From assembly GCA_015064895.1 (NCBI GenBank), contig SVRI01000012.1, forward strand, positions 1,146 to 65,145: a DNA stretch of 64,000 nucleotides. The letters run 5' to 3'. Source of the DNA: Oscillospiraceae bacterium. GTDB taxonomy: Bacteria; Bacillota; Clostridia; Oscillospirales; CAG-382. Within the stretch, counting starts at the first letter, position 1. Every line of letters begins with the position of its first letter. The notes below the pieces were generated by a model. That model saw only the letters and a list, made by a program, of their open reading frames with translations. It made no database searches and was not told the origin of the DNA. A program made the translations under genes and the position numbers. This document shows positions 5,297-52,193 of the stretch, in pieces.

Positions 5297-6058
5297 GTGG
5301 GAAGAGATATAACAACCCCATCGACAAGGCTGGTAGCGGCGGCAAAGATTGCCGCCGCTTCTTTGTATGATGGCGAAGACACAGACAATTTAGTTGCCAT
5401 AGATGTCGGCTGTGACCATGCAAAACTCGCAATTTACCTCGTGCAAAGCGGCATCTGTAGATATGTTACGGCATCCGATGTAAACGAAGGACCCGTAAAA
5501 AAGGCAAGGGAAAATGTGAGTAGACGTACTCTTATGGGTAAACCCCTGTCGGATAGTATAGAAGTTGTCCACACCGACGGTCTTTTTGGACTTTCGGATA
5601 GAAATGCCAACCGCATATTCATACTCGGCATGGGCGGTGAAGTCATTTCGGGAATTTTAGACAGGGCAGACTTCATAAAGAGCGAAGAAAACAAGGGCAA
5701 AATTAAATTTATCCTCCAGCCCATGACAAGCGAAGATAAACTTCGTGAGTATTTGCTTGAAAATGGCTATAATATCCTTGATGAAGAAATGGTGCTTGAT
5801 AAGGACAGGGTGTATGCCGTGATGTCGGTTTGTTTTGACGGTGTAAAAAGAGAATATACCCCTGCCGAAAAGCTGCTCGGAAGATATAATGTACAAAAAG
5901 GCGGTGAACTTTTCTGCCGTCAGCTTGACAGAAGAATCAGAATTACCGAAAAAGCCATTGCCGATAGAAAAAAAGCAGAGCTTGATTGTGCTGAGTTTGA
6001 GGAACTTTTGAGAGAAATGCTCAAGATACGAAAACTGCATGAAGCCTCCCTTGTGTAA
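5297..6058 (+). CDS. trmK: tRNA (adenine(22)-N(1))-methyltransferase TrmK-like class I SAM methyltransferase
   Basis: AIDVGCDHAKLAIYLV (SAM-binding DxGxDH motif), GMGGEVISGIL and a C-terminal coiled-coil region. GTG start. The last 5 codons and the stop (EASLV*) are supplied by the repeat module at 6042. Confidence 0.8.
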   Translation: MGRDITTPSTRLVAAAKIAAASLYDGEDTDNLVAIDVGCDHAKLAIYLVQSGICRYVTASDVNEGPVKKARENVSRRTLMGKPLSDSIEVVHTDGLFGLSDRNANRIFILGMGGEVISGILDRADFIKSEENKGKIKFILQPMTSEDKLREYLLENGYNILDEEMVLDKDRVYAVMSVCFDGVKREYTPAEKLLGRYNVQKGGELFCRQLDRRIRITEKAIADRKKAELDCAEFEELLREMLKIRKLHEASLV

Positions 6059-6100
6059 AGGGAGGTGGGTTTGCACAAGGTGCAAACTCGGAGGGATTGT
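6042..6100 (+). repeat. hairpin repeat module, copy 1 (forward)
   Basis: aagCCTCCCTTgtgtaAAGGGAGG (8-bp stem) + tgg + GTTTGCACaagGTGCAAAC (variable hairpin) + tcGGAGGGATTGT, immediately before the ATG at 6101. Confidence 0.9.
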
Positions 6101-6469
6101 ATGGATAGAAAACATAACAAATCAATAGTTCCTACGGCACGTATGCTCCGAAAGAATATGACAAAGGAAGAAAAGCATTTGTGGTATGATTATCTGCGTA
6201 CATATTCTGTAAAGTTTTCAAGGCAAAAGGTGCTTGGAAAATATATAGCTGATTTTTATTGTGCAGAGGCAAAACTTATCATTGAACTTGACGGTTCTCA
6301 GCATTATGAAGAAAAAGGAATTGAATACGATGCAGAGAGAACCGCATATTTGGAAAAATACGGTTTGAGAGTTATAAGAATTGAAAACATAGAAATAAAC
6401 AAGAATTTTGATGGTATTTGCGAATATATTGACAGACTGGTACAACAATCCCTCAGTCAGCAAAGCTGA
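6101..6469 (+). CDS. DUF559 (Vsr-like endonuclease fold) domain protein
   Basis: 122 aa. ARMLRKNMTKEEKHLWYDYLR..., FSRQKVLGKYIADFYCAEAKLIIELDGSQH..., RTAYLEKYGLRVIRIEN is the typical DUF559 pattern. The ATG at 6101 lies 5 nt after the module GGAGGG. The last 8 codons lie in the inverted module. Confidence 0.85.
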   Translation: MDRKHNKSIVPTARMLRKNMTKEEKHLWYDYLRTYSVKFSRQKVLGKYIADFYCAEAKLIIELDGSQHYEEKGIEYDAERTAYLEKYGLRVIRIENIEINKNFDGICEYIDRLVQQSLSQQS

Positions 6470-6494
6470 CAGCTCCCTTTACACAAGGGAGCCG
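6444..6494 (-). repeat. hairpin repeat module, copy 2 (inverted orientation)
   Basis: See the reverse-complement alignment under the mobile_element entry. The variable hairpin here is GTCAGCaaaGCTGAC. Confidence 0.9.
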
Positions 6495-6519
6495 TAGATA
6501 CGTGCAGCAGGAGAAAGTA

Positions 6520-7023
6520 ATGAAGAAGCTTTTAACGATATTGGGACCCAATGGTGTAGGAAAGAGTACAACAGCGAAAGCTTTTGTTGAACAATATGAA
6601 AATTCTGCATATGTTGATGCTGAATGGTGTCGTTATATGAATCCGTTTTCTTTTACTGAAGAAACAAAACAGGTTGTAATCAAAAATCTTTATTGTTTGT
6701 TATTTAATTATTTTTCGTGTAGTAAGATAAATACAGTGGTGTTTCCGTATGGCTGGCATGGGGAAAGAAAATGCATATACGATAGAGTGATTGAAAAACT
6801 GAAAGAACAAAAAATAGACTTTGAAGAGTATATAATTGTTTTAGACTGTTCTAAAGATGAAATAATGAGACGAGCTATAAAAGACGGCAGGGATGAAGAA
6901 AGAATAAAACGAGGATTGGAAAATACCTTTTTGTTCTATAATGATTTTGACTATCCTAGAATTAACACTACAAATATAACCCCGTTAGATGTAGCAAAAC
7001 AAATAAGATTGCTAATACCGTAA
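6520..7023 (+). CDS. small P-loop NTPase (AAA/nucleoside-kinase-like), function unknown
   Basis: 167 aa. Walker A is LGPNGVGKST. AGGAGA RBS at 6509-6514 before the ATG at 6520. The gene sits between repeat copy 2 and copy 3. Confidence 0.65.
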   Translation: MKKLLTILGPNGVGKSTTAKAFVEQYENSAYVDAEWCRYMNPFSFTEETKQVVIKNLYCLLFNYFSCSKINTVVFPYGWHGERKCIYDRVIEKLKEQKIDFEEYIIVLDCSKDEIMRRAIKDGRDEERIKRGLENTFLFYNDFDYPRINTTNITPLDVAKQIRLLIP

Positions 7024-7075
7024 AAGCCTCCCTTGTGTAAAGGGAGGTGTCACCGCGAGGTGACGGAGGGATTGT
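7024..7075 (+). repeat. hairpin repeat module, copy 3 (forward)
   Basis: aagCCTCCCTTgtgtaAAGGGAGG + t + GTCACCgcgaGGTGAC + GGAGGGATTGT. Confidence 0.9.
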
Positions 7076-7097
7076 AAAAAGAAAGGGAGAAAACAAC

Positions 7098-7865
7098 ATG
7101 ACAACAGTAAGAGACATAGATAATTTTATTTCCGAAATATCCCCAAAGGAGCTTTCTGAAAGCTGGGACAATGACGGGGTTATGATTTGCTCGCGTCCCG
7201 ATAAAAGTGCAAAAAAAATCCTTGTTGCCCTCGATGCAACGTCAGATGTTATCGACTATGCAGGCAAAAAAGGTTTTGACCTCATAGTTACCCACCACCC
7301 CTTTATTTTCAAGAAACTTTCACGTATCACGGGCTTTGAATATAAAAACCTTGAAACACTTATAAAAAATGACGTTTCAGTGCTTTCCTACCATACAAGA
7401 CTTGACTCTGCACAGGGCGGTGTTAATGATGTTCTTGCACAAACTCTCGGACTCGGTGATATAAAAGGCTTTGGCGGTGATAGGGGAGACTTTGGCAGAA
7501 TCGGCAGTCTTTCTGAGGAAATGTCGGGAAGGGAGTTTGCACTCTATCTTAAAGAAAAGCTGGGATGTGACGTGAGATGTGCGTTTAATGACAGCAAAAT
7601 GATAAAGACGGTTGCCGTTCTCGGCGGTTCGGGTAAGGACTTTGTGTATGAAGCCATGATGACAGGTGCAGATGCCTATGTCACATCGGAAATTCCCCAT
7701 AACCTTTTCATTGATGCAAAGGTTCGTGACTTTGCACTCTATGACTGCGGTCACTACTATACTGAAAATCCCGTTTGTGAAAAGATTAAGAGCCTTTTGA
7801 CAGATAAGTTCTCGGATGTTGAGGTTGAAATTTTTGATATAAAGAGTCCGTATGTGTGCTATTAA
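7098..7865 (+). CDS. Nif3-family dinuclear metal centre protein (YqfO-like)
   Basis: WDNDGV, LVALDAT, DLIVTHHPFIF, SYHTRLD and CGHYYTE motifs. The ATG at 7098 follows AGGGAGA. The ORF-track start at 7047 lies inside the repeat module. Confidence 0.9.
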   Translation: MTTVRDIDNFISEISPKELSESWDNDGVMICSRPDKSAKKILVALDATSDVIDYAGKKGFDLIVTHHPFIFKKLSRITGFEYKNLETLIKNDVSVLSYHTRLDSAQGGVNDVLAQTLGLGDIKGFGGDRGDFGRIGSLSEEMSGREFALYLKEKLGCDVRCAFNDSKMIKTVAVLGGSGKDFVYEAMMTGADAYVTSEIPHNLFIDAKVRDFALYDCGHYYTENPVCEKIKSLLTDKFSDVEVEIFDIKSPYVCY

Positions 7866-8377: not shown

Positions 8378-8498
8378 GAGTTTGACCGCCCTGCTTATGG
8401 CGGTCAAACGGTAAAACAATCGAGAAATAATAATAAAACTTCAATCCTTTGCAGAAAGGTGACAAATTCGAGTTCTTTTGCCTGCTTTTCTGCGAAAG
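8378..8498 (+). repeat. tandem intergenic repeat, unit 1
   Basis: Hairpin GTTTGACCGCC-N8-GGCGGTCAAAC, then aatcgagaaataa.aataaaacttcaatcctttgcagaaaggtgacaaat.cgagttctt...ttctgcgaaag. It repeats 195 bp downstream at roughly 85% identity by eye. Confidence 0.85.
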
Positions 8499-8572: not shown

Positions 8573-8693
8573 GAGTTTGACCGCTTGCCTTAACGGCGGT
8601 CAAACGGAATACCAATCGAGAAATAAAGATAAAACTTCAATCCTTTGCAGAAAGGTGACAAATGCGAGTTCTTTGCTAAGCTTTCTGCGAAAG
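8573..8693 (+). repeat. tandem intergenic repeat, unit 2
   Basis: Same layout as unit 1, with a different hairpin loop and a conserved stem. It ends 15 nt before the rqcH start. Confidence 0.85.
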
Positions 8694-11832: not shown

Positions 11833-11851
11833 ACTCCAAAAGATTGCCCCA

Positions 11852-11937
11852 AAGCCTCCCTTGCCTAAAGGGAGGGGGACCACCGTAGGTGGTGGAGGGA
11901 TTTCGAAAGCTGTCACCGTAAGGTGACTGAGGAGGTT
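11852..11937 (+). repeat. hairpin repeat module, copy 4 (forward, with duplicated variable-hairpin arm)
   Basis: aagCCTCCCTTgcctaAAGGGAGG + CCACCgtaGGTGG + tGGAGGGATTT + GTCACCgtaaGGTGAC + tGAGGAGGTT. Confidence 0.85.
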
Positions 11938-11997
11938 AAAACGGTAAGAGTTAAAAGTGTTTTTTAACCTCATCCGTCAAAATCAAAGATTTTGCCA

Positions 11998-12028
11998 CCT
12001 TCCCCGTTCGTTGGGGAAGGCTTTTTTT
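11998..12028 (+). terminator. intrinsic terminator
   Basis: CCTTCCCCgttcgttGGGGAAGG followed by CTTTTTTT. Confidence 0.7.
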
Positions 12029-23950: not shown

Positions 23951-24147
23951 GACTTTGAACAGGTATTGTTGTAATCAAACAAAATTTCAGTCTGATGTGT
24001 GCAATATCACCAAAATAAAGAGATAAAAATCTACATATCGGAGAGAGGATAAGGATAAAAAATTCGTTGTTCTGTAACTTTGTGTTTACATTTCGATGTT
24101 ACCATGAATACGTATATTTGTACACTCGTAGTAAAAGGAGAAAAATT

Positions 24148-27100
24148 ATGAGAAGACTTTTAAGTGTAGTGCTCGCAATCGTGATGGTTATGTCAACTGT
24201 TGCTTTTGCAATACCTTCTGCGGTAACAAATACCGATAACGCAGAAGAACAGACAAATGCACCGGAGGAAAATGCTGTGGCAGAACTTACAGCGGCAAAG
24301 GCACTCAAACGAGGCATTAACATGCTCACAGGAAACAAGAATGCCTTTGACGGCGAAACCGAAACCGATATTTCCTGGGCAACAGCAGGTTCTATCCCAG
24401 CTTCCGACTTGGCAGTTGTGGATGACCCCACAGGTGAACGCGGCGGCAAGGTGTTCCAGGCAACACAGGCAGTAAACGACAAGGGTTACCCCAACTTCAA
24501 CATGCAGTTCGGCGGCGACCTTGATACAGATATCGGTCATACATATCTTTATGTAGCATTCGACTATCAGAAGTATGTACCCGAAACCGAAGGCTATATT
24601 GAAAACACTGCTTTCTGGGTTCTTAACTCTACTGCTGCAGCAGGTACATTTGCTGTTTTCAATCCTGCTCTCGGTGCAAATGAAGGCTGGAAGCATTTTG
24701 GAAAGATAATTGATTACACAATAAATACCACCGGCGACAGTATGTATGATACAACCACAAACGAGTATTATACAGATCAGGATCTCAATAAGTCGATGGT
24801 TTTCCAGTCGGGTAAGAATACAGCCAATACTGTTCCCGCATATCTTCTCTTCGACGATATTATCGTTGCTCCTGCTTACAAGGTTACATATTATAATAAG
24901 GCAGGCACAGATGTTGTAAAAACAGACTATATTGCAGTTGACGAAGAAGGCAACCTTCTTGAAGCATTCGAGCCCGCTGCTATCATTTCCGGTTCTACCG
25001 TTTACAGCGACTGGTCTCTTACACAGGGCGGTTCCGTAAAGAGTTATATTACACTTGATGAGTCTTTCAACGAAGATATTGTTCTTTATGCAACAACCGA
25101 AGGAGATGCTACAGCTACTGCAAAGGTAGTTCTTGATAACAAGCTTACCAAGGCAGGCGATACAGCAGTTGCAACAGCGAAGTTCCTCGGCGACCCCGTA
25201 TTTGACCCCTTCTCAATCACATGGTCTTCAGCTCATCCCGCTGTTGCAGAAGTAAGCTATGATAAGGCTACCGGTATTGCAACGGTTACAGCAAAGTCGG
25301 AAGGTTATGCAGATCTTACATTCTCAAGCGGCTCTCTTACATTTACTGACAGAATCTATGTAACAGACGATCCTATCGTAGCTTCAAGCGTTACAAGCGG
25401 TGCTGAAATTTCCGAATTTGCAGGCGTTGACCTTGAGCTCTATGAATATGTAACCGTAAATGTTACAAACACATCTTCTTCTGCTAAGAAGGTAACTGTT
25501 TCTCTTGACAGTGCCGAACTCGATAACGAAATCGGTTTCAACTTCGCAGAATGGGATATTGAAGTTCCTGCGAATGTTACAAACTACGATGTATACGTTG
25601 ACCTTACAAATGAAGCATTGTGGAAAGATGATTCCGAAAGCATTACAGTAACAGCACAGAGCGGTGTAACAATCAACAATGCAAAGCTCTGGCCTGTTCT
25701 CACACCCGAGATTGAACTTGGACTTACATCTCCTACAGACCTCATTTCCACAGCAAACGGTACAGTTACCGTAACAGGTGCATTTACTTGCGACCTTGAA
25801 GGTGTATATGACGAAACATTCACACTTACTGTTGATACAGATCCTACAATCGCTTCCTATACAATCAGCGGTAATAACGTTACAGTTAAGGCGGGTACAG
25901 CAGGTACATGCGTTGTAACCGTAACAGCTACAAGTAACGAAGATCCTTCAGTTAAAGCAGTAAAGAAGATTCTCGTAGATATCGGTAACACTTCCGGCTA
26001 CGGACTTACACTTGATGCCGATTCCACAAGCATCAACGGCGATGCAATTGCAACAATTACTCCTATTGTTCACTCTGCATCAGGAAGTGTTGATAACTTC
26101 AGCATCGAATATGCAATGTCTGCTGACGGCTATGCGTCTCTTCTCAAGAACGGCGACGGCACAGCAACAGTTACTCCTCTTAAGGACGGCTCCGTAACAA
26201 TTACAGCAACAGCTGTTGTCGGCGGCAATACTCTTACAGATGACATCACACTTACACTTACAAATATTCCCAGAAGAACCGTAGCATACGACTTAAAGCT
26301 TATGCTTATCGGTAACTCCTATCTTGAACACGGCTATCTCGCAACAGCCGATAAGACTCTCTATAACGGTTATATGGATAAGACCGATGTTCCCCGTGGT
26401 ATGGCGGCAACTTCTCCTGAACTCGACTACTATGCACAGCTTTGCAAGAGACTCGAAGCAGGCTTTGAAGGCTCATTCACATCCAAAAAGCAGGGCGGTG
26501 CCGTAATCGAACAGGCTTGGAAGAAGGGTCTTGCTTCAGGTACACCTTCCGATCTTACAGGCTGGGATCCCGATGTTTCCCTTGCAGCAATGCAGAATGC
26601 ATGGGCACCCATTGTAGATTATATGGATAAGGAACAGCCTAACCTTATTACAATTCAGCTTGCTGAAAACGCAGCTCATGCTAAAGAAGAATCCGCAACA
26701 TTCTTCTATGATGAAGTATGCAAGATGATTGATGCTCACAGACCCGAAAACTCCGTAGTAGTTATCATTTCTCCTATGGGTACACAGGTATCCTCCAATG
26801 TACAGCAGGTAATCGCCGCAAAGTACGGATTCTACTGGGCAGATAACACATGGATCGGTGACGAAAACGGCTGGGGTGCAAGCAATCCCTACCTTGCATT
26901 CGGACACTATCCCGATTATACGAACTCCGCTGTGGTTGAATTCCGTACACACCCCGGTAACCTCGGTATGGAAGAAATTGCAAAGAGTGCATACGCAATC
27001 TTCGAAGAAAAGATTCCTACAGCTATTAAGCCTACTCTCGTAACACTTCCCGACAGCTTCACAATCGAAGGTGCTGACACAATTACAGCAAAGGGCGGTA

Positions 27101-28938
27101 CAGCACAGCTTACAGCTGTTCCGAATCCTGCATCTGCAACAGATAAGGTTTACTGGTCTGTAAACAACGAAAACCTTGCAACAGTTGATGAAAACGGTCT
27201 TGTTACAGCACTGCTCAACGGTACGGTAACAGTTACTGCAAAGTCTATCTACGACGAAGAAGTTGTTGCAACAAAGACAATTACAATTTCCGGTCAGATA
27301 CCTCATTACACTCTTACATATGCTTCCGGCGTTGCAGGTGGCGAAACGGTAAATAACATTCCCGCAGCTTTCGCATATGCGGCTGGCGAATATGTATTCC
27401 CCGCACTTGTTGCAGTTCCTGAAAGAAACGGTTATAAGTTCCTCGGCTGGTCTGAAACTGAAGGCGGCGAAGTAGTAAAGAGCGTTAACATGACTTCTGC
27501 TAAGACAGTATATGCAATTTGGGAACTCGCTGACAGCTGGTCGTTCGATAACGACGGTGACCTTGAAGGTATCGGCGTTGCAGGCTTTAACACTAAGGTT
27601 GAAGGCGGCGTAATGTCAACTATTTCCTATGACGGTCAGGCAGTCGGCTTCTCCGATGCAACACTTATACTTGATGCGTCTAAGTACAGTGCATTCAAGA
27701 CAAACATCTCAATGTCTACCGTAAACAGCGGCGACTACTTCACTCTTACAATCACAACAGATGAAGGCAACAAGACATTTACCGCTGAAACACTTGTAGG
27801 TGCAAATGACTACACATTTGACCTTTCTGAAGTAACAGGCACAATCACAGGCTTCAGCCTCTACACAAGCAACAGCGCAGACGGTGTTGGCATGACAGTT
27901 GATTATGCAAAGTTTGTTGAAGCTGCATCAAGAGGCGAAGAAGTATATGATAGCCTTGACGTTAATTCCTACACAACACTCGATGCAAGCAACAATCTTA
28001 TCACTGTAAATAATCTTACAGTAAACAGCACACTCGTTCTCGAACCTGGTTCTTACGTATTTGAAAACGTAAGCGGCACAGGTAAGATTGAGGCATCCGT
28101 TAACGCAAATGTGCTCATAAAGAATGGCACAAAGCCAACAGGCTACGTTGAAATCGAAATCGGTGCTAAGGCTGAAAATGCTATCAGATACGCAGAAGTT
28201 GACGGTGCTCAGTACAGAATTTACGAAGAAGAAGGCAACACCAAGTACGGTATGATTCTCGGTGATGAAAGCAAGCTTCTTGAAATTACATCTGTTGGTT
28301 CTGAAACAGCTTCCAAGTACTATCTTGTAAAGGACGGTGCAGGCTCTGAAATTTCTATGGGCACATATGCTAATAAGGCAGATGAAAAGACCATCAGAAA
28401 TGATGAAGTGACAAGTAACAGGACTGGTGCAAGATTTGCAGCGAGCGTTTCTAAGAACTTTGAAAACGTATCCGGTATCACAATCACAGAACACGGCTTT
28501 ATTGTTGGTCTTGAAGAAACAATCAATGCCAACGGCGGTCAGCTCAACTTTGACCTCAAGAATGAAGCTTTTAACGACGGCAGAGGCGCTTATGTTTCCG
28601 GAAAAGCATTTGTTAGAGATGAGTATAACATGATAGCAAATCATGACTCTTATGCTTCTGACAGTGCATATGTATTTGCAGCTATCCTTGTTGGTGCACC
28701 TGAAGCTCAGTACAACAAGAGACTTGTTATCAAGACATATACAAAGCTTACAATTAACGAAGAAGAATTTGTTGTATACGGTCAGCCCATGGTAGAAAGC
28801 TTCTACTCACTTGCTGCAAAGCTTAAGGGCGATACAACTCTTCCCGAAAACGTTCAGACTATTATCAACGGAATCGTTGAAAATGGCGAAAACTTCGGCA
28901 ATGAAGAGGCACTTCCCGGTGACGACCTCTGGAGCTAA
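24148..28938 (+). CDS. giant secreted mosaic protein A (1596 aa): CBM-like domain, Big_2 repeats, SGNH-like esterase, Flg_new repeats, shared C-terminal module
   Basis: The ATG at 24148 follows AAAGGAG; the ORF-track start at 24067 is an upstream extension. Signal peptide MRRLLSVVLAIVMVMSTVAFA. SGNH-like blocks LIGNSY / QLAENA / FRTHPGNLG. Flg_new signature PERNGYKFLGWSETEGG...VYAIW. Several Big_2-like segments (e.g. LTAVPNPASATDKVYWSVNNENLATVDENGLVTA). Paralogous to 29134-34512. Confidence 0.85.
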   Translation: MRRLLSVVLAIVMVMSTVAFAIPSAVTNTDNAEEQTNAPEENAVAELTAAKALKRGINMLTGNKNAFDGETETDISWATAGSIPASDLAVVDDPTGERGGKVFQATQAVNDKGYPNFNMQFGGDLDTDIGHTYLYVAFDYQKYVPETEGYIENTAFWVLNSTAAAGTFAVFNPALGANEGWKHFGKIIDYTINTTGDSMYDTTTNEYYTDQDLNKSMVFQSGKNTANTVPAYLLFDDIIVAPAYKVTYYNKAGTDVVKTDYIAVDEEGNLLEAFEPAAIISGSTVYSDWSLTQGGSVKSYITLDESFNEDIVLYATTEGDATATAKVVLDNKLTKAGDTAVATAKFLGDPVFDPFSITWSSAHPAVAEVSYDKATGIATVTAKSEGYADLTFSSGSLTFTDRIYVTDDPIVASSVTSGAEISEFAGVDLELYEYVTVNVTNTSSSAKKVTVSLDSAELDNEIGFNFAEWDIEVPANVTNYDVYVDLTNEALWKDDSESITVTAQSGVTINNAKLWPVLTPEIELGLTSPTDLISTANGTVTVTGAFTCDLEGVYDETFTLTVDTDPTIASYTISGNNVTVKAGTAGTCVVTVTATSNEDPSVKAVKKILVDIGNTSGYGLTLDADSTSINGDAIATITPIVHSASGSVDNFSIEYAMSADGYASLLKNGDGTATVTPLKDGSVTITATAVVGGNTLTDDITLTLTNIPRRTVAYDLKLMLIGNSYLEHGYLATADKTLYNGYMDKTDVPRGMAATSPELDYYAQLCKRLEAGFEGSFTSKKQGGAVIEQAWKKGLASGTPSDLTGWDPDVSLAAMQNAWAPIVDYMDKEQPNLITIQLAENAAHAKEESATFFYDEVCKMIDAHRPENSVVVIISPMGTQVSSNVQQVIAAKYGFYWADNTWIGDENGWGASNPYLAFGHYPDYTNSAVVEFRTHPGNLGMEEIAKSAYAIFEEKIPTAIKPTLVTLPDSFTIEGADTITAKGGTAQLTAVPNPASATDKVYWSVNNENLATVDENGLVTALLNGTVTVTAKSIYDEEVVATKTITISGQIPHYTLTYASGVAGGETVNNIPAAFAYAAGEYVFPALVAVPERNGYKFLGWSETEGGEVVKSVNMTSAKTVYAIWELADSWSFDNDGDLEGIGVAGFNTKVEGGVMSTISYDGQAVGFSDATLILDASKYSAFKTNISMSTVNSGDYFTLTITTDEGNKTFTAETLVGANDYTFDLSEVTGTITGFSLYTSNSADGVGMTVDYAKFVEAASRGEEVYDSLDVNSYTTLDASNNLITVNNLTVNSTLVLEPGSYVFENVSGTGKIEASVNANVLIKNGTKPTGYVEIEIGAKAENAIRYAEVDGAQYRIYEEEGNTKYGMILGDESKLLEITSVGSETASKYYLVKDGAGSEISMGTYANKADEKTIRNDEVTSNRTGARFAASVSKNFENVSGITITEHGFIVGLEETINANGGQLNFDLKNEAFNDGRGAYVSGKAFVRDEYNMIANHDSYASDSAYVFAAILVGAPEAQYNKRLVIKTYTKLTINEEEFVVYGQPMVESFYSLAAKLKGDTTLPENVQTIINGIVENGENFGNEEALPGDDLWS

Positions 28939-28965
28939 CCCAAAACAATTAAAACACAAAGTTTT

Positions 28966-28994
28966 GCACACCCGATTTTCGGGTGTGCTTTTTT
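28966..28994 (+). terminator. intrinsic terminator
   Basis: GCACACCCGattttCGGGTGTGC followed by TTTTTT. Confidence 0.8.
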
Positions 28995-29133
28995 GTGCAT
29001 AGTAAATAAAAATGTATACGGAAATTCTAAGGTTTAAAACAGGATAAATGGCGAAAAATACATAAAAAGTTAATAATTTTCGCCTATAATATAAACGTAT
29101 ATTTTTATTTAAATTCAGAAGGAGAAGAATTTT

Positions 29134-32100
29134 ATGAAAAAGCTTTTAAGTGTACTCCTTGCACTTGTCATAGTGTTTTCAACCGTGGCTTTTGCAATTC
29201 CTTCTGTTGTTACCGTTAAGGATACAGCAGAGGAAACAGTTGTAGTACAAGACGAAAATCCTGCCGACCTTATGGGTATAGGCTATAAGGTTCAGCGTGG
29301 TATTAACATGCTTACAGGCACAAAGGATGCCCTCACAGGTGAAAACTATGCCATCTACGGCGGCATTTTCAATACTGCTTACGCTGATACAAAAATAAGT
29401 GCAAGCGTTAACCCTAAGGACAGCACAGATAAGGTTTTTGTATTTAATATTCCGAGTCCTGCGGCACAAGGCAGAGGCGACTATGTAAACTTCAGCGTTC
29501 AGTTCGGACCGTACTCTAACGGTGCATGGGCAAATCTTAGCAACTATATGTCCCACAAATATATGTATGTTTCTTTTGATGTAATGAAGGAAGTTGTTGA
29601 TGCTTCTGCAGGATATACTGCAGGGGATTCCTTCTGGATTATGAACTCTAATGTTACAAGCGGCAACAACTCATTCCTTACTCCCAAGAATGTTACTCCC
29701 ACAGCGGGCTGGCAGCATTTCAGTAAGGTTTGTAACCTCATGCTTACAAATCAGGAAGAAGGTACATCTACAGGCAGAGAAGACCCTAACCAGATTATCT
29801 TCCATATGTATGTAGACAATGCAAATAAAACAGATGTAAACTTCTATTTCGATAATATGATTATCGCTCCTGCTTATAAGGTTACATATTATAATAAGGC
29901 AGGTGATACGGTTGTTAAGGAAGATTATATTGCTCAGGATGCAAGCGGAAATCTTCTTACATCCTTCATGCCTCAGGGTATAGTTGCAGGCAGAGCTTCC
30001 TATAGCGGATGGTCTGCTGCTAAGGGCGGTACACCCATTACTGAAGCGATTGTACTTGATGAAAATAATAATTCCGATATCGTTCTCTATGCTACACAGG
30101 AATTGGACGCATTCGACAATGCAACACTTTCTTCTGATGCAAAGCTCGATAAGCTCGGTGCAACAGCAACTGTTACAGCTAATCTTGTTGGTAATCCCGA
30201 TGTTAATGCAGACTATGTAACATGGTCTTCAAGCAATGAATCGGCTATTACCGTTGTAAATAACAAGGACGGTAAGACAGCAACACTTAAGGCTGTTGGT
30301 GAAGGTAAATCCACAATATCATATACTTATCAGTATGCAACGGGTTCATATGCGACCGTTACACAGGAATTTGAAGTGGCAGTTGGTGCAAAGACAGAAT
30401 TCTCAGGTCTTAACACAGACGTTTACGAATATATCACATTGAATGTGACAAACAGCGGTGCCGAAAGCAATGTAACTGTTTTCTATTCAACAGATAAAGA
30501 TGTAGGCACAAAGGAAATTAAAGTTCCGGCAAACGTTACAGGCTACGATGTATACGCAGATATGACTAAGGAATCTGCATGGAACGGCACAATTTCAAAC
30601 ATTTCCGTTTCCGAAGGCAGCGGCGTAACCGTTAATAACACAAAGCTTTGGGCAACTCTCAACACAGACCTTGCTCTTAAGTTCAATACAGAATCCACAT
30701 TTATCGGTACTCCCAATTCTTCACTCAATATCGCAGCTTTGGTTGACTGCGACCTTGAAGGCGTATACGATAAGACATATACATGGACAACAAATATTAC
30801 AAATAATTGTGCTGTTGTTACAGAACAGGCTGACGGCTCACTTACAATCTCGGCAGGTGAAAATGCAGACGGCTTTGTAACGGTTACGGCTACAAGTAAC
30901 GATACAAGTAAAAACGTTTCAATCACAAGAAGAATATTCGTAAAGACAGGTGTTGATGACGGCTCTAAGGCCATTGCTTATACATGGAACTTCGACGATA
31001 CAGCCGGCACAAAGAACTGGTATAACGGCGGCGGACACCACGCACAGTCCAAGGTTGAAAACGGCACCCTTACTCTTGTAAGAACAGCTGCTAAGCTTTC
31101 GGGTGCTTCTTCAACAAGCCTTGTTACAGTATCAAGTACAACAGGCGGTTATTCTCTTACTGCCAAATCATCGGGTTCCTATGCGGAATCGGGACAGAAT
31201 TCTGTAGAGTTCTCCATGACAGATTATCCCTATTTCTGTTTCAAGGCAAAGACAACAAATCCCGGAACATATAACATTAAGGGTTATTTCACGGCGGACG
31301 GTGTTTCTCATGCAGAGAGCAGAGCAAGGACAGCTGATTTTGAGTTAACAGACGAGTATCAGCTCTTTGTATTTGATCTTACTTCTATAGCAAATTCCTC
31401 GGAGCTTAAGGGTAAGAATTACGGCGGTATTATGCTTGTTAACCAGACAAATTCCGTAATTGATGCTTCCACAATTAATTCTTCAAATGTAGCATCTTCT
31501 CCTCTTACATATTCTTCATATAATCCCGTTATTATTGACGAAGTGTTCTTTGCCAACTATGATGCTTCAAACACTCTTGAAGTAGGTCTTGACCTCACTG
31601 CAGACAAGTATTCTATTAACGGTGAAGGCACATTTACACTTACTTCCGAGTTATTCTCCAATAAGGCAATCACAAACACAAATGTTGTTTACTCTGCTGA
31701 CAGCAATATCGTAACAGTATTCAACAACGGTGACGGAACAGCAACCGTAACACCCGTCGGAAACGGTACAGTTACAATCACGGCAAAGTCTGTACTTGAT
31801 GAATCGGCTACAGATTCTGTTACACTCACAATAAGCGGTGTTCAGACAAAGCTCGTAGCATATGACCTTTCCATGGTGTCTCTCGGTAACTCCTACCTCT
31901 GCCATAACTATGCAGAGTGGTTTGACTTGTCAAAATACAACGGTTGGATTGATGAAACAGACGTTGTCCGCGGTATGGCTGCTTCCGAGCCCGACCTCGA
32001 CTATTATGGCAGAATCCAGTATTATATCAATAATAATTTCAACTGCTCGCTTAAGGCAAACAGATTTGCAAATAACCTTATCGAAATTGCCTGGAAGAAG

Positions 32101-34512
32101 GGTCTTGCAGATCAAAGTGATACTTCAAACCACGAAAACTTTGACTATACAAAGGCAAAGAATGCAATCCTTGATGCAATGACAGCGCAGCTCAAGTACA
32201 TTCAGGATGAACAGACAAACATTATTACAATCCAGCTTGCAGAAAACGCGCAGTTCGGCAACTACGGTGAAATTGCTTCCTTCTTCTATGATACAGTGTT
32301 CTCTGCCATTGATGAGGTAAGACCGGCTGAGTCCGTAGTAGTAGTAATTACGCCCTTTGGTTCCAATGCGGCTACAAATGCAGAAATTTCAAAGGCTCTG
32401 GAATACGGCTTCTGTGTTGCTAACTGTACAGATATGACAGATAGCAAGTGGAAAGCGTTTGATCAGTATCCAAACTTCAATAACCCCAACTCCTCCAGCG
32501 ACTTCCGTTCTCACCCCGGTGACCTCGGTATGGACGAAATAGGTAAGCGTGTATTTGCACAGCTTGAAACAGCAATTCCTGCAACAATTCCTGCAAGCTA
32601 CATCTACGTTCCCGATTCCATTTCCATTACAGGCGGAAATGCTATCACAGAGGATAAGGGCACACTTCAGCTCGGTGTTGAGGTAACTCCTGCTGAAAAC
32701 TCCACAGACAGCGTATTCTGGTCTGTTGATAACCAGAACATTGCAACGATTGATGAAAACGGTGTTCTTACGGCAGTAAATAACGGAACAGTAAATGTAA
32801 CGGCAACGTGTGCATACGATGAAAGAGTCAAGGCAACACTTGCAGTTACAGTTTCAGGTCAGGTTCCCGCGTATACTGTTACATATGCGGCAGGTACAAC
32901 CGATACAGTAACAAATCTTCCCGCAGCAGATGCTTACGCAAAGGGTACATATACTCTCAGCACTTCTGCTCCCGAAAGAAACGGTTATAAATTCCTCGGC
33001 TGGTCACTCACAGAAGGCGGCACACCCGTCAAGACTGTTGAGATGACAGAAAATAAGACGGTTTATGCCACATGGACACTTGCTTACGAATGGAACTTTG
33101 ATACAGAAGGCGACCTTGAAGGCATCAGCCTCGGCGGCTTCCATACATACGTAAGATACGAAGAACTGCCCGCAATGGTAGTAGGTACTGTAACCTCCTA
33201 CGGCGATGGTGTAACAGTATTTGATAATACACTTCTTCTCGATTCTGCTTCGTATAACGAATTTGTTGTCAGACTTCAGCCCACTCAGGCAACCTCCACA
33301 GATACTCTTGACCTTACCGTTACAAGTACAGACGGCACATATAACTATTCAGTACCCATGATAAAGACATCCATGGAAGAATATAAATTTGATCTTTCGG
33401 ATGTTACAGGCACAATTACAGGCTTCCTTTTAAAGCCCAGCGTAATTGAACTTTCGCTTTATATTGACTACATGAAGTTCCAGAAGGGCAAGATAAAAAT
33501 TGTTGAAGATACGGTAGTTGATTCTCTTACAATAACAAAAGATACAACAATTGCAGCAGGTGACTATACATACACAGTATTAGGCTCTGTTTCTGTTCCC
33601 GAAGGTAAGACGCTTTATCTTGAAGCTGGTACCTATAACTTTGCAGGAGACCTTACAGGTAATGTTGTGGCATCTCCCAACGCAAATGTCGTTGTATACG
33701 GCGAAAACAAGCCCAAAGGTTATGTTGAAATCGACCTTGGTCAGAATAACGGCACAAGATATGCAGAGGTTGACGGTATTCAGCTTCCCATCAAGGAAAA
33801 CTCAAGCTACCTTTACGGTGTAATCACAGACAAGAATCTTCTTGTTCAGATTGTCGAAAAGGGCGGTGCAAGCCTTGCATCGGAAGTGGTGACTGAGGAT
33901 GTTTCCACAGAATACTATCATGTGAATGCTGCAGATGAAACCTATGAGCTGCTTCCCATGAGTAATTACATGATGAATGTTGAAGGTCAGGATTTGAGAG
34001 CCCCTGATGAAAAGATTAATCAGATGGGTGTAAGATTCAAGGCACAGGTGTCAGCTGCTTCCAAGAATGAAACAGTATATACAATAACAGAATACGGCTA
34101 TATCATCGGTCTTGAGGAAACAATTAATGCAAACGGCGGTCAGCTTAATTTTGAACTTGAAAACAAAGCTGATTCAAAACTTGCGTATGTTTACGGCAAG
34201 GCGTATGTGAAGGGCGAATTTGATAAGATATATGACAGCTCGAATGACGACTATTATGTATTTGCAGGCGTTCTTCACGGTGCACCCAAAGGTAAGTACG
34301 ATACAAATATTGTTGCAAAGACATACACCAAGGTTACTGTAGGTACAGATAATTATGTAATCTATGGAGAACCCATGGTTGCAAACTTTGTTGAACTTGC
34401 TCTTGCACTTAAGGGTGATGAAACTCTTCCCGAAGACTTGAAGTCGGTTGTGGATGAGGTTATTGATGATACACTCGGCAATGATTCCGGTTTTGACTGG
34501 GGCGAACTTTAA
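29134..34512 (+). CDS. giant secreted mosaic protein B (1792 aa), paralog of A with an extra central insert
   Basis: RBS AAGGAGA. Signal peptide MKKLLSVLLALVIVFSTVAFA. Same domain order as A (LGNSYLCHN / QLAENA / FRSHPGDLG; PERNGYKFLGWSLTEGG...VYATW). It has an additional roughly 200-aa CBM-like segment (AYTWNFDDTAGTKNWYNGGGHH...) that A lacks. Confidence 0.85.
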   Translation: MKKLLSVLLALVIVFSTVAFAIPSVVTVKDTAEETVVVQDENPADLMGIGYKVQRGINMLTGTKDALTGENYAIYGGIFNTAYADTKISASVNPKDSTDKVFVFNIPSPAAQGRGDYVNFSVQFGPYSNGAWANLSNYMSHKYMYVSFDVMKEVVDASAGYTAGDSFWIMNSNVTSGNNSFLTPKNVTPTAGWQHFSKVCNLMLTNQEEGTSTGREDPNQIIFHMYVDNANKTDVNFYFDNMIIAPAYKVTYYNKAGDTVVKEDYIAQDASGNLLTSFMPQGIVAGRASYSGWSAAKGGTPITEAIVLDENNNSDIVLYATQELDAFDNATLSSDAKLDKLGATATVTANLVGNPDVNADYVTWSSSNESAITVVNNKDGKTATLKAVGEGKSTISYTYQYATGSYATVTQEFEVAVGAKTEFSGLNTDVYEYITLNVTNSGAESNVTVFYSTDKDVGTKEIKVPANVTGYDVYADMTKESAWNGTISNISVSEGSGVTVNNTKLWATLNTDLALKFNTESTFIGTPNSSLNIAALVDCDLEGVYDKTYTWTTNITNNCAVVTEQADGSLTISAGENADGFVTVTATSNDTSKNVSITRRIFVKTGVDDGSKAIAYTWNFDDTAGTKNWYNGGGHHAQSKVENGTLTLVRTAAKLSGASSTSLVTVSSTTGGYSLTAKSSGSYAESGQNSVEFSMTDYPYFCFKAKTTNPGTYNIKGYFTADGVSHAESRARTADFELTDEYQLFVFDLTSIANSSELKGKNYGGIMLVNQTNSVIDASTINSSNVASSPLTYSSYNPVIIDEVFFANYDASNTLEVGLDLTADKYSINGEGTFTLTSELFSNKAITNTNVVYSADSNIVTVFNNGDGTATVTPVGNGTVTITAKSVLDESATDSVTLTISGVQTKLVAYDLSMVSLGNSYLCHNYAEWFDLSKYNGWIDETDVVRGMAASEPDLDYYGRIQYYINNNFNCSLKANRFANNLIEIAWKKGLADQSDTSNHENFDYTKAKNAILDAMTAQLKYIQDEQTNIITIQLAENAQFGNYGEIASFFYDTVFSAIDEVRPAESVVVVITPFGSNAATNAEISKALEYGFCVANCTDMTDSKWKAFDQYPNFNNPNSSSDFRSHPGDLGMDEIGKRVFAQLETAIPATIPASYIYVPDSISITGGNAITEDKGTLQLGVEVTPAENSTDSVFWSVDNQNIATIDENGVLTAVNNGTVNVTATCAYDERVKATLAVTVSGQVPAYTVTYAAGTTDTVTNLPAADAYAKGTYTLSTSAPERNGYKFLGWSLTEGGTPVKTVEMTENKTVYATWTLAYEWNFDTEGDLEGISLGGFHTYVRYEELPAMVVGTVTSYGDGVTVFDNTLLLDSASYNEFVVRLQPTQATSTDTLDLTVTSTDGTYNYSVPMIKTSMEEYKFDLSDVTGTITGFLLKPSVIELSLYIDYMKFQKGKIKIVEDTVVDSLTITKDTTIAAGDYTYTVLGSVSVPEGKTLYLEAGTYNFAGDLTGNVVASPNANVVVYGENKPKGYVEIDLGQNNGTRYAEVDGIQLPIKENSSYLYGVITDKNLLVQIVEKGGASLASEVVTEDVSTEYYHVNAADETYELLPMSNYMMNVEGQDLRAPDEKINQMGVRFKAQVSAASKNETVYTITEYGYIIGLEETINANGGQLNFELENKADSKLAYVYGKAYVKGEFDKIYDSSNDDYYVFAGVLHGAPKGKYDTNIVAKTYTKVTVGTDNYVIYGEPMVANFVELALALKGDETLPEDLKSVVDEVIDDTLGNDSGFDWGEL

Positions 34513-34531
34513 TTAAATAACTGAGTTTTTT

Positions 34532-34561
34532 GTCCGCATCGAAAGATGCGGACGTTTTTTT
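34532..34561 (+). terminator. intrinsic terminator
   Basis: GTCCGCATCgaaaGATGCGGAC followed by GTTTTTTT. Confidence 0.8.
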
Positions 34562-34569
34562 GTTTTAGC

Positions 34570-34598
34570 TTTACAAAATGATTACTGAGTGATATAAT
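34570..34598 (+). promoter_or_regulatory. sigma-A promoter with extended -10
   Basis: TTTACA, 17-nt spacer ending in TGa, then TATAAT. It is 21 nt upstream of the ATG at 34620. Confidence 0.55.
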
Positions 34599-34619
34599 GA
34601 AAAAAAGAAAGGGGATATA

Positions 34620-37850: not shown

Positions 37851-37853
37851 ATA

Positions 37854-37886
37854 AAATCCCGCACGCTGAGGTGCGGGATTTTTTTG
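37854..37886 (+). terminator. intrinsic terminator
   Basis: AAATCCCGCACgctgagGTGCGGGATTT followed by a T-run. Confidence 0.8.
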
Positions 37887-37944
37887 TATAAATTTCAAGA
37901 GCATAAGAACCATAAAAGTGCTAAAAAAATATGAAAAATGGATA

Positions 37945-37973
37945 TTTACATATTGTGCAAATTGTGATACAAT
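37945..37973 (+). promoter_or_regulatory. sigma-A promoter with extended -10
   Basis: TTTACA, 17-nt spacer ending in TGa, then TACAAT. Same architecture as the promoter at 34570. Confidence 0.5.
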
Positions 37974-38029
37974 GATAGTAATTAAAATTGTGACTTTTTA
38001 ACAAAGTTCATAAAAAAGGAGAATGCTTT

Positions 38030-42463: not shown

Positions 42464-42483
42464 TATAGTCAGAATTAAAATTT

Positions 42484-42516
42484 TCCGCACTCACACGGTG
42501 GGTGCGGAGTTTTTTT
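42484..42516 (+). terminator. intrinsic terminator
   Basis: TCCGCAC...GTGCGGA stem followed by GTTTTTTT. Confidence 0.75.
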
Positions 42517-52037: not shown

Positions 52038-52070
52038 AAAACTCCCGCAGATTTCTGCGGGAGTTTTTTG
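52038..52070 (+). terminator. intrinsic terminator
   Basis: AAACTCCCGCAGatttCTGCGGGAGTTT followed by TTTG. It is the first clear terminator after 42516. Confidence 0.8.
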
Positions 52071-52193
52071 TTGTAAAAGGAAGGGCAGTTTACATGCTTT
52101 TTTTTGCGGTTTACTAAACTCTACACACATTCGGTTTACATTTTTTCCATTGTATGTTATACTAAACATGAAAACAACAAAAGGAGAATGCAT

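Follow-up and report, generated by a model that had tools for sequence, protein, structure and literature searches.

A DUF559 nuclease gene bracketed by inverted triplex-motif repeats in gut Clostridia: a candidate nuclease-and-repeat system

The repeats named BoxC, PIT or TM have been known since the 1990s, and we know of no established origin, partner or function for them. BoxC repeats are also named PIT elements, which Hoyne et al. in 2000 reportedly searched for with loop limits of 0-10 nt. The TM_ECO repeats described by Holder et al. in 2015 form a triplex in vitro, occur as a type A and type B pair in inverted orientation, and mark variable regions (PMC4666352). In vivo, DMS footprinting of TM_ECO gave no protection and earlier tests of PIT elements had no effect; an association with mobile elements is not reported there, and no associated gene is named (PMC4666352).

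Two other described systems are relevant. In REPIN-RAYT, a gene of nuclease type lies between inverted copies of a dispersed structured repeat, inverted doublets are the form without a gene, each gene lineage has its repeat subfamily, and the system persists for a long time with mostly vertical inheritance (PMC2817692, PMC3116915). The Vsr-like (EDxHD) homing endonucleases, such as I-Bth0305I, provide a precedent for the Vsr-like fold in a selfish element (PMC3239194, PMC2677866).

In the window, i.e. the whole 64-kb stretch of DNA analysed, two small genes lie between trmK, encoding the tRNA m1A22 methyltransferase (5297-6058, + strand; Pfam PF04816 TrmK, E 1e-38), and its usual downstream partner, a NIF3-family gene (7098-7865, +; Pfam PF01784, E 3e-71). 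The first (6101-6469, +) encodes a 122-aa DUF559 protein, a Vsr-like PD-(D/E)xK nuclease (Pfam PF04480, E 1e-31), and the second (6520-7023, +) a 167-aa P-loop (AAA_18) protein with weak matches only in Pfam and NCBIfam. The original prediction had named trmK and nif3 as usual neighbours, correctly so, as about 55 related loci show. It had also taken the two small genes for an insertion into this conserved pair, and such they are, because in the closest relatives (L121, L123, L127 and others; L with a number denotes a related locus, L or R alone a module type) the trmK stop overlaps the nif3 start (ATGA).

The insertion is associated with a structured module of about 52 nt. The three copies originally noticed, about 50 bp long and in forward, inverted and forward orientation, were recovered at 6042-6100 (M1, +), 6445-6493 (M2, -) and 7023-7075 (M3, +), and orientation goes with sequence type, the forward copies being L and the inverted copy R. 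The L type is CCTCCCTT..AAGGGAGG with the tail GGAGGGAT, and the R type is GCTCCCTT..AAGGGAGC with the tail TGAGGGAT. M1, of the L type (covariance model 67 bits; triplex finder 8/8; DNA fold z-score -5.7), consists of AAG, the Y-arm CCTCCCTT (6045-6052), the loop GTGTA, the R-arm AAGGGAGG (6058-6065), hairpin 2 (6067-6089) and the third-strand tail GGAGGGAT (6090-6097), followed by TGT. M2, of the R type (68 bits; triplex finder 8/8), reads on the minus strand G, GCTCCCTT, GTGTA, AAGGGAGC, TG, GTCAGC-TTT-GCTGAC, TGAGGGAT and TGT. M3 is a solo module of the L type (73 bits; also found by the triplex finder), with its Y-arm at 7027-7034, R-arm at 7040-7047, hairpin 2 at 7049-7064 and tail GGAGGGAT at 7065-7072.

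Two further modules lie downstream. M4 (11851-11904, +; 42 bits; also found by the triplex finder) is of the L type, with its Y-arm at 11855-11862, R-arm at 11868-11875, hairpin 2 ACCACC/GGTGGT and tail GGAGGGAT at 11894-11901, and has a half R-like piece downstream of it at 11906-11925. It forms a compound doublet with M5 (11968-12026, -; 21 bits, E 3e-5; triplex finder 7/8), an inverted module of a diverged subfamily with the arm CCTTCCCC and the tail GGATGAGG. On the plus strand, hairpin 1 of M5 and a T-run resemble a terminator. Matches to the 19-mer CTCCCTTGTGTAAAGGGAG are located at 6046-6064 (+), 6473-6491 (-) and 7028-7046 (+), plus one with two mismatches at 11856-11874 (+); shuffled windows contain none. 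GGAGGGATTGT occurs at 6090-6100 and 7065-7075, and TGAGGGATTGT at 6445-6455 on the minus strand. Building a covariance model of the module had been suggested; used unfiltered it finds exactly these five modules in the 64 kb, as does a sequence-agnostic triplex-motif finder, with M4 and M5 placed at 11852-11904 (+) and 11970-12023 (-), and none is found in 20 shuffles of the window. A candidate module at 52038-52089 (covariance model E 0.13) was rejected as an ordinary terminator.

The modules are closely fitted to the genes. M1 contributes the last five codons of trmK and its stop TAA (6056-6058), which lies within the loop and arm of hairpin 1; in the relatives L348 and L352, trmK ends about 20 nt upstream of the module. 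The tail of M1 doubles, as predicted from its position, as the Shine-Dalgarno sequence of the DUF559 gene, GGAGGG ending 5 nt upstream of the ATG (6101). M2 holds the last eight or so codons of DUF559 and its stop TGA (6467-6469). On each of these points, direct reading agrees with what had been claimed for the left and right modules. The P-loop stop codon (7021-7023) adjoins M3, and both small genes are thus bounded by modules as claimed. The P-loop gene, however, stands in the opposite geometry, between M2 and M3 with both module tails pointing outward from it, and lies outside the conserved unit described below.

The module comprises an 8-bp pyrimidine/purine hairpin 1, a hairpin 2, and a purine tail, the mirror image of the hairpin 1 purine arm. 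Hairpin 1 is 99.8% paired, with compensatory changes at two pairs, and all five copies in the window fit. Hairpin 2 is free in sequence and conserved in pairing: all seven of its pairs show two-sided changes, the share of paired cells is 93.8% as against 76% in shuffled and 39-54% in slid controls, and G-U pairs are few. It measures 14-30 nt and sits in the second loop. The linker (loop 2), 16-24 nt long, folds into hairpin 2 and leaves about 3 nt unpaired. Because this linker exceeds the published loop limits for triplex motifs (1-6 nt in ITxF and 0-10 nt in Hoyne et al.), earlier searches would have missed these modules. For the DNA folds predicted, z-scores range from -3.6 to -5.9.

The original prediction overlooked that the tail mirrors the hairpin 1 purine arm and that it fits a triplex code, which is what links the module to the BoxC/PIT/TM intrastrand-triplex repeats. 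Under the code for an antiparallel purine triplex, a curated test found 178 of 184 tail positions to fit the purine arm among 23 subfamilies, and of 52 departures of the arm from the reference, 50 are matched by the tail, although the subfamilies are kin by descent and the true covariation events are consequently fewer than these counts imply. In the same test a direct repeat scored 78 and Watson-Crick pairing 120; on the latter value we reject the idea that the tail is conserved for pairing with the 5' arm (Shine-Dalgarno sequestration). In an automated mirror-code test, the observed score was reached by none of 100000 permutations. Some arms (CCTTCCCC, CCCCCCTT) have an unmatched tail position. 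Since the tail mirrors the purine arm, it could fold back into the groove of hairpin 1 on one strand, which would give an intramolecular purine-motif triple helix. Since it also covaries with the arm under the triplex code, the module is best classed with E. coli BoxC/PIT/TM among the class II intrastrand-triplex motifs, its loop 2 being occupied by a covarying hairpin. Rfam gave no relevant match for the window and eight related loci at gathering and permissive thresholds.

With BoxC/PIT/TM the clostridial modules share the order of the strands (pyrimidine arm, loop, purine arm, linker, mirrored purine third strand), the triples G.G-C, A.A-T and T.A-T, the inverted pairing of two types, and a location at gene ends or between genes, in loci that vary among relatives. 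They differ in having arms of 8 nt rather than 10 nt and of different sequence, a hairpin in the second loop, and clostridial hosts in which the repeats bracket a nuclease gene.

This bracketing holds well beyond the window. The L module, the DUF559 gene and the inverted R module form a unit of about 455 bp, and both modules are present at all of the 80 closest DUF559 homologues, which belong to different species. At all 80 loci, the L module ends 1-3 nt before the ATG and the R module covers the last codons. Across 58 loci, similarity is close to 100% between positions -55 and +400, counted from the ATG, and 0-5% beyond them, with sharp edges at the modules. The unit is discrete, as had been suggested for a DUF559 gene bracketed by inverted structured repeats. 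The P-loop gene is locus-specific cargo, outside the conserved unit, because the sequence beyond the modules is unrelated across the 58 loci. For 73/80 and 58/80 genes the triplex finder returned motifs at both ends in the correct orientation, the background being 20 motifs in 331 kb and 16 in 157 kb. Hundreds of gut Clostridia carry such a unit of gene and repeats, which lies in unrelated contexts in different genomes and genera. In most loci the gene is followed by the R hairpin 1 and a T-run, resembling a terminator; M2 is without this T-run. The same genomes contain dispersed solo modules and gene-less L/R doublets (gap about 22 nt), and the gaps of L/R pairs with facing tails fall into two groups, 5-60 nt (37 pairs) and 344-347 nt (9 pairs). 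The spacers of doublets bear a weak likeness by eye to the ends of the open reading frame (about 64% over 22 nt). As side observations, contigs in metagenome assemblies of gut Clostridia break at the modules, where the depth is 100-1000 times that of the flanks, and the repeats give rise to spurious peptides in protein databases.

At the trmK-nif3 junction the unit has been inherited vertically through speciation. Exact-protein look-ups returned this locus only, and hence no second insertion site within the species. The locus exists in four states. Module remnants flank the P-loop homologues of L343, L348 and L352 at this junction and that of L122 at another; a hybrid-hairpin scar is present in L343 and L122; the position of M3 is that of a solo module in L122; and in L352, hairpin 2 of M3 has been replaced by that of M1. 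The modules thus mark sites of gene gain and loss, and recombination between repeats has later removed parts of the insertion in related lineages. No clean target-site duplication was found on comparing the window, L122, L343 and empty sites, the junctions being 80-87% identical and too diverged, and among the loci compared there was no clean pair of empty and filled sites. 'Joints' in metagenomes were rejected as evidence for excision or empty sites, as they are other doublets elsewhere in the community, and the metagenome contigs leave polymorphism at this locus unsupported. Pfam matches within 3 kb on either side of the element include no transposase or integrase, and the 481-bp element has no match in plasmid and phage collections.

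The DUF559 protein matches PF04480 with 109.5 bits (cut-off 20.6), and its structure matches are PDB 3HRL (E 5e-15) and 3R3P (E 0.07). Across 13 clostridial and proteobacterial sequences, residues D51, E62, D64, H68, D77 and R80 do not vary, so that the catalytic core is intact, and they include the motif E, D, H, D of the EDxHD homing endonucleases. The Y1 transposase profile does not match the protein. With a dN/dS of about 0.05 and internal stops in none of 81 copies, the nuclease protein is under strong purifying selection. The repeats are under purifying selection too. DUF559 proteins are 74-83% identical between genomes whose TrmK proteins are only 33-39% identical. Several diverged copies are present per genome, each with its own repeat subfamily, and because copies within one genome (84-91% nucleotide identity) have diverged as much as those between genomes (86%), recent transposition is not indicated. 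The DUF559 clades track the module subfamilies: the clade of the window goes with CCTCCCTT/GCTCCCTT, the L020 copy with CCTCTCCT, the L155 clade with CCTTCCCT, and a clade 56-68% identical to L155 with CCTTCTCC or CCTTCCCC. In the L155 clade, the open reading frame lies loosely between the modules and has its own ribosome-binding site.

The association is not confined to Clostridia. Eight proteobacterial DUF559 genes, E. coli ycjD among them, were sampled blind to their flanks, and all eight have a triplex motif within 200 nt; the motif overlaps the 3' end of the gene in four and brackets it on both sides, in the clostridial geometry, in two. The family is very large, with at least 8000, at least 3864 and at least 6589 matches in three listings, and includes YcjD. 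Our literature search found no paper linking a DUF559 nuclease with these repeats.

The recurrence of the unit in Clostridia, and with E. coli BoxC repeats in Proteobacteria, suggests that DUF559 is probably the partner enzyme of the repeats. The original reading of a non-autonomous element with a nuclease as cargo is probably the wrong way round, because DUF559, the only gene of the unit, is under strong purifying selection and covaries with the subfamily, and the gene-less L/R doublets are the non-autonomous forms. On balance, we somewhat favour the view that DUF559 and the repeats constitute a nuclease-and-repeat system like REPIN-RAYT, the present unit being one of a large family. The nuclease would recognise and nick folded repeats of its own subfamily, and nicking would lead to the repeats being maintained or disseminated, as RAYT transposases do for REP/REPIN. 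The gene in turn would owe its ribosome-binding site to the L tail of the repeats and its terminator, at most loci, to an inverted hairpin 1 with a T-run. Of the REPIN-RAYT features given above, the bracketing by inverted copies of a dispersed repeat, the gene-less doublets, the match of gene lineages with subfamilies and the long persistence are shared, and inheritance is vertical at the present locus, with contexts that differ between genera. DUF559 is a Vsr-like PD-(D/E)xK protein and not an IS200/IS605-type HUH tyrosine transposase, the clostridial repeats are triplex motifs and not simple REP palindromes, and each genome has several diverged gene copies. The link between enzyme and repeats rests on adjacency and co-variation, which would be expected of any co-inherited unit.

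Other element types compare less closely. In IS200/IS605 single-strand DNA transposons, subterminal hairpins are recognised while the DNA is single-stranded, and non-canonical contacts between bases of the flank and the hairpin foot define the ends. The modules resemble them in having hairpin ends with predicted extra base interactions, and differ in that the ends are inverted instead of sharing one orientation, an HUH transposase is lacking, and the extra interaction would be a helix of eight triples. Integron attC cassettes likewise have structured imperfect palindromes around small promoter-less genes, with structure conserved over sequence as in hairpin 2; here, in contrast, there is no array and no integrase within 3 kb on either side of the element, the sites are dispersed, and the sequences of hairpin 1 and the tail are strongly conserved. 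As to terminal-inverted-repeat transposons and MITEs, the inverted L and R modules amount to terminal inverted repeats with AAAAG at the outer edge, and neither a transposase-family match within 3 kb of the element nor a target-site duplication at the trmK-nif3 junctions was found.

Among the alternative explanations, DUF559 may be a free-standing homing endonuclease that cuts the short spacer of a doublet, into which the gene is then copied by repair with the modules as homology arms, so that gene-less doublets would be targets and not derivatives. DUF559 is akin to I-Bth0305I (3R3P, E 0.07; PADLOC HEase, E 2e-4; PMC3239194), and with that group and 3HRL it shares fold, motif and small size. 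Also, the open reading frame exactly fills the space between the tails, the gap being either about 22 nt or about 345 nt. We nevertheless consider this unlikely: the copies within a genome are old and divergent, doublets vastly exceed occupied sites, and occupied and empty alleles of one doublet were not found among the loci compared. The loosely placed L155-clade gene and the many proteobacterial genes with a motif on one side only also speak against it. Unlike those of the EDxHD homing endonucleases, the present gene lies outside introns and inteins and is flanked by structured repeats.

It seems equally doubtful that DUF559 is a host repair nuclease for replication-stalling triplex or hairpin DNA, with repeat adjacency serving expression control only and the repeats spreading or persisting on other grounds. 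Strong purifying selection and vertical inheritance are in keeping with such a function, as are the L tail serving as Shine-Dalgarno sequence, the R hairpin and T-run serving as terminator, and the ability of R-type triplexes to arrest polymerases (PMC4666352). A host gene, however, would not need the repeat on both sides, nor would it be expected as a sharp-edged unit in unrelated contexts of different genera, more similar between genomes than TrmK is, or as several diverged copies per genome each with its own repeat subfamily.

A less probable explanation is that the modules are sites for homologous recombination or for some recombinase, and that DUF559, like the P-loop gene, is a frequent cassette. 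The original prediction had raised recombination of cassettes at structured sites, and part of it stands: the four locus states, the module-bounded P-loop gene at two different junctions, and the uptake of the M1 hairpin 2 by M3 in L352 agree with it, and the solo module in L122 and the hybrid hairpin found there and in L343 are the leftovers expected of recombination between modules. The cassette role of DUF559 stands less well, since this gene is in 80/80 units and other cargo is sporadic, the nuclease clade covaries with the repeat subfamily and the association extends across phyla, cassette arrays are absent, and the 3 kb on each side of the element hold neither an integrase nor a transposase. 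A two-gene defence system of DUF559 and the P-loop protein was also rejected, PADLOC giving only generic P-loop and weak nuclease matches and most units having no P-loop neighbour.

Finally, a role of the modules in the transcript, whether as terminators, as stabilisers or as switches sequestering the Shine-Dalgarno sequence, with the mirror incidental, is very improbable: their position at gene ends, the likeness of CCTCC/GGAGG to anti-Shine-Dalgarno and Shine-Dalgarno sequences and the predicted hairpins (z-scores to -5.9) would suit this, but the mirror code outscores Watson-Crick pairing of tail and 5' arm (178 versus 120), the coded strand is sense at one end and antisense at the other because the two copies are inverted, G-U pairs are rare in hairpin 2, Rfam has no match, and purine-motif triplexes do not form in RNA (PMC4666352).

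Returning to the nuclease-and-repeat system, a broader proposal may be put forward tentatively, at somewhat less than even odds: the DUF559 proteins, YcjD included, may be the missing partners of triplex repeats across phyla, reading the folded triplex, cutting, and propagating or maintaining the repeats. The question is open to direct test in E. coli by means of ycjD and BoxC, of which strain K-12 has 18 loci. Three-way covariation, here extending over more than 20 subfamilies and over two phyla, is evidence of the sort on which RNA structures were established, and such evidence has been rare for a DNA triplex. If the proposal is true, selection would be seen preserving a DNA triplex code through such covariation, three loose ends would be joined (the role of BoxC/PIT/TM repeats, the function of DUF559, and DNA triplexes in cells), and the unit would represent a new class of nuclease-and-repeat replicator.

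Copies of a roughly 52-nt module, consisting of a pyrimidine/purine hairpin (hairpin 1), a second hairpin (hairpin 2) and a purine tail, flank the DUF559 gene and follow the P-loop gene. In a search of the window, the 19-nt core of hairpin 1 is found exactly at 6046-6064 (+), 6473-6491 (-) and 7028-7046 (+), and with two mismatches at 11856-11874 (+); shuffled windows contain no match. The tail GGAGGGATTGT (TGAGGGATTGT on the minus strand) lies 3' of each of the three exact copies. The copies reported in the original prediction are therefore real. A covariance model built on 66 modules and run on the window without filters detects five, namely these three, 11852-11904 (+) and 11970-12023 (-). 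A sequence-agnostic motif finder returns the identical five, and none in 20 shuffles of the window.

Pfam assigns TrmK to 5297-6058, DUF559 to 6101-6469 (E 1e-31), an AAA_18 P-loop protein to 6520-7023 and NIF3 to 7098-7865. Direct reading of the sequence bears out the earlier description of how modules and genes interlock: the trmK stop codon lies within hairpin 1 of the first module, the DUF559 ATG is 5 nt downstream of GGAGGG, DUF559 ends, with its last ~8 codons and its stop codon, inside the inverted module, and the third module begins at the P-loop stop codon.

Repeats of other kinds are also present in the window. An 80-nt direct repeat (8399-8478 and 8595-8674, 93% identical, 196 nt apart) lies between a PNPOx-like and an NFACT-family gene. 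Two tRNA genes stand side by side at 58501-58877, where an identical 57-nt repeat (58632-58688 and 58821-58877) comprises the tRNA 3' end and a terminator hairpin. Several long paralogous segments at ~24000-42500 (60-84% identical, spaced ~3.5 to 8 kb) suggest a family of large repeated genes.

The modules are of two types, L for the forward and R for the inverted copies. The L type reads G-CCTCCCTT-GTGTA-AAGGGAGG-TG-(hairpin 2)-C-GGAGGGAT-TGT and the R type G-GCTCCCTT-GTGTA-AAGGGAGC-TG-(hairpin 2)-C-TGAGGGAT-TGT. Hairpin 2 is free in sequence and keeps its pairing, with two-sided changes at 7/7 pairs. For both hairpins, 93.8% of cells are paired, versus 76% in shuffled and 39-54% in slid alignments, and the pairing of both is well supported. 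A G.T pair closes hairpin 1 in 64 of the 66 rows of the module alignment A1 (columns 9/31), and the second pair of hairpin 2 is a conserved G.A mismatch in the L type (columns 33/53); these non-Watson-Crick pairs are of interest since mismatches are where Vsr-type nucleases act. Single-stranded module DNA is predicted to fold into two abutting hairpins and a free 11-nt tail (z-scores -3.6 to -5.9).

A listing of all pyrimidine/purine hairpins in the related loci examined yields many module subfamilies, in each of which the tail is the purine arm reversed and uncomplemented. The arm/tail combinations include AAGGGAGG/GGAGGGAT, AAGGGGGC/TGGGGGAT, AGGGGAGG/GGAGGGGT, GGAGAAGG/GGATGAGG, GGGAGAGG/GGAGAGGG, GAGGAAGG/GGAAGGAG and AAGGAAGG/GGATGGAT. 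The tail places G against a G-C pair, A or T against an A-T pair, and T against an inverted C-G pair at position 1, and T opposite such an inversion also belongs to the antiparallel purine-motif triplex code. Apart from this last element, the rule equals that code as published (PMC4666352). In an automated test, with the tail position set by hairpin 2 and a generic purine pattern alone, the tails fit their own arms at 155 of 192 positions, versus 119 +/- 6 for permuted arms, and 0/100000 permutations reach the observed value. In a curated table of 23 subfamilies, put together with the code already known, 178 of 184 positions fit (controls: 78 for the tail as a direct repeat, 120 for Watson-Crick pairing with the 5' arm). 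The tail follows the arm in 50 of the 52 departures from the reference arm, although the subfamilies share ancestry and independent covariation events are therefore fewer than these counts. The two tests support, at the level of sequence, a tail that fits the triplex code.

Among known structures, the DUF559 protein of the window hits 3HRL, itself a DUF559 structure, at E 5e-15; I-Bth0305I (3R3P), a homing endonuclease of the Vsr-like kind, is a weak match at E 0.07. Residues D51, E62, D64, H68, D77 and R80 show no variation across sequences from Clostridia and Proteobacteria. Among 81 copies none has an internal stop, 73% of the differences are at third codon positions, and dN/dS is ~0.05. 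Copies within a genome are 84-91% identical in DNA, comparable to copies from different genomes (mean 86%); the copies are old and diverged. DUF559 clades match repeat subfamilies. CCTCCCTT/GCTCCCTT is the subfamily of the window clade, CCTCTCCT accompanies the copy at the related locus L020 (66% identical) on both sides, and the clade of locus L155 is paired with CCTTCCCT and tail GGATGAGT. A further clade, 56-68% identical to L155, has CCTTCTCC or CCTTCCCC with tail GGATGAGG. In L155 the ORF is clear of its modules and carries a ribosome-binding site of its own, and therefore the association of DUF559 with the modules goes beyond translation signals.

An exact hairpin 1 21-mer occurs at at least 120 loci in many Clostridia assemblies. 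The gaps of tail-facing L/R pairs are either 5-60 nt (37 pairs, mode 22-24) or 344-347 nt (9 pairs), the latter being the DUF559 ORF. A scan for DUF559 gives at least 536 loci, and the best 80 of these, from different species with proteins 74-83% identical, all have both modules in the window geometry (80/80). The motif finder, having no knowledge of the sequence, places correctly oriented motifs on both sides of 73 of 80 window-clade genes and 58 of 80 genes in a second set (background, 20 per 331 kb and 16 per 157 kb). For 58 of the best 80 loci, similarity stays at ~100% between positions -55 and +400, counted from the ATG, and is 0-5% outside this range, apart from an extension of ~125 nt that follows the R module in about half of the 58. 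The extension (L194 3395-3520; also at loci L077, L088 and L069) comprises a second hairpin and the palindrome CTTGTCAATTTTCCTGACAAG, and also adjoins some gene-less doublets; Rfam has no match to it, and the window copy lacks it. The outer edge of the unit is an invariant G after an A-run, and therefore inverted hairpin 1 with its T-run looks like a terminator after DUF559 at most loci. The T-run is missing from the window copy, consistent with read-through to the P-loop gene and nif3. Over window positions 5996-7126, metagenome runs X1 and X7-X9 show an assembler depth at the modules 100-1000x that of the flanking sequence, and contigs break off at the modules.

A comparable repeat of E. coli goes by the names BoxC, PIT and TM_ECO. 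It reads CCCTCTCCCC-TTT-GGGGAGAGGG-TTA-GGGTGAGGGG and belongs to the class II intrastrand triplex motifs (Holder et al. 2015, PMC4666352). According to the same paper, MG1655 has 23 copies, including five inverted pairs, always of type A with type B; the triplex was demonstrated in vitro, loci differ between strains, no link to mobile genetic elements was reported, and DUF559, ycjD and Clostridia go unmentioned. In the clostridial module, hairpin 2 leaves ~3 unpaired nt between purine arm and tail, as many as the second loop of TM_ECO has (3 nt). In the 20 kb examined around ycjD, the DUF559 gene of MG1655, the single TM_ECO lies ~170 nt from the gene, and a degenerate BoxC-like piece overlaps the 3' end and stop codon of ycjD. 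In the E. coli K-12 locus L342 (11205-11440) this piece is followed, downstream of ycjD, by a partial copy of the gene's 3' end and then by an intact TM_ECO.

Seven more proteobacterial DUF559 genes, chosen without prior knowledge of their flanks, all have a triplex motif within 200 nt (7/7), in gene contexts that differ from genus to genus. An inverted motif overlaps the 3' end in Enterobacter and Klebsiella. L362 and L363 show the geometry of the clostridial unit: a forward motif covers the start of the gene, its end is covered by an inverted motif, and arms co-vary with third strands. A Cardiobacteriaceae genome has one motif 200 nt downstream. In Neisseria sicca (L364, 1734-2759) an array begins 145 nt after the gene, its forward and inverted motifs alternating with a period of ~280 nt. 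In Kingella kingae (L365, 1201-1669) the gene and, after it, a motif doublet lie between carA and carB, which are normally adjacent, and are another insertion splitting such a pair.

Four states of the trmK-nif3 junction are found among related genomes. In L121, L123, L127 and many more, the stop codon of trmK and the ATG of nif3 overlap (state 0); L122 has a solo L module at the position of the third window module (state 1); in L343 a hybrid hairpin comes first, then the P-loop gene, a forward module and nif3 (state 2); and the window arrangement recurs in L348 and L352, with neighbouring genes 83-100% identical (state 3). The intermediate states are readily explained as derived from state 3. 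The hybrid hairpin, which joins an L-type 5' arm, an inverted loop and an R-type 3' arm with a C.C mismatch, is the expected remnant of a deletion between the CTCCCTT repeats of the first two modules, and the solo module that of recombination between the first and third. In L122, a P-loop cassette with the same hybrid scar sits instead at the nif3-PNPOx junction, and in L352 hairpin 2 of the first module is present in the third. The scar, the solo module, the relocation and the hairpin replacement therefore mark the repeats as recombination points for gene gain, loss and relocation. Within the species, the exact DUF559 protein is always at this locus (23 contigs). A gene-less L/R doublet between a DUF1858 gene and trmK in one relative only (L144, 3792-3915) is a further presence/absence difference near the trmK operon.

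As to mechanism, the most likely reading is that a module on single-stranded or unwound DNA would fold into two hairpins and a triplex, that the DUF559 nuclease would recognise the fold of its own subfamily and nick there, and that nicking would drive copying, excision or recombination of the repeat. Weighing against this reading are the age and divergence of the DUF559 copies and the failure of published in vivo footprinting to detect the E. coli triplex (PMC4666352). Homing, in which DUF559 would enter doublets that stand empty, is unlikely, and it is similarly improbable that DUF559 is a host repair nuclease for obstructive structures. It is less likely again that the modules are recombination sites with DUF559 as mere cargo. 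Action of the modules at the RNA level is very improbable. The nicking model may be likened in function to REPIN-RAYT (PMC3116915, PMC2817692), from which the DUF559-module system differs in enzyme fold and DNA structure.

Intrastrand triplex repeats are already known, as are DUF559 and repeat-associated nucleases. What appears to be unreported is the cross-phylum pairing of DUF559 with triplex repeats, together with the three-way covariation and the clostridial variant, whose second loop is structured; no report of them was found in the searchable literature on DUF559, ycjD, intrastrand triplexes and BoxC/REP/RAYT (subscription journals being outside this scope), and module nucleotide and translated-peptide sequences gave nothing in the same literature. 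The comparisons demonstrate that nuclease and repeat form a discrete unit with dispersed gene-less derivatives, that nuclease clades are matched to repeat subfamilies with selection on both partners, and that the repeats mediate rearrangement. In gut metagenomes, the modules fragment assemblies.
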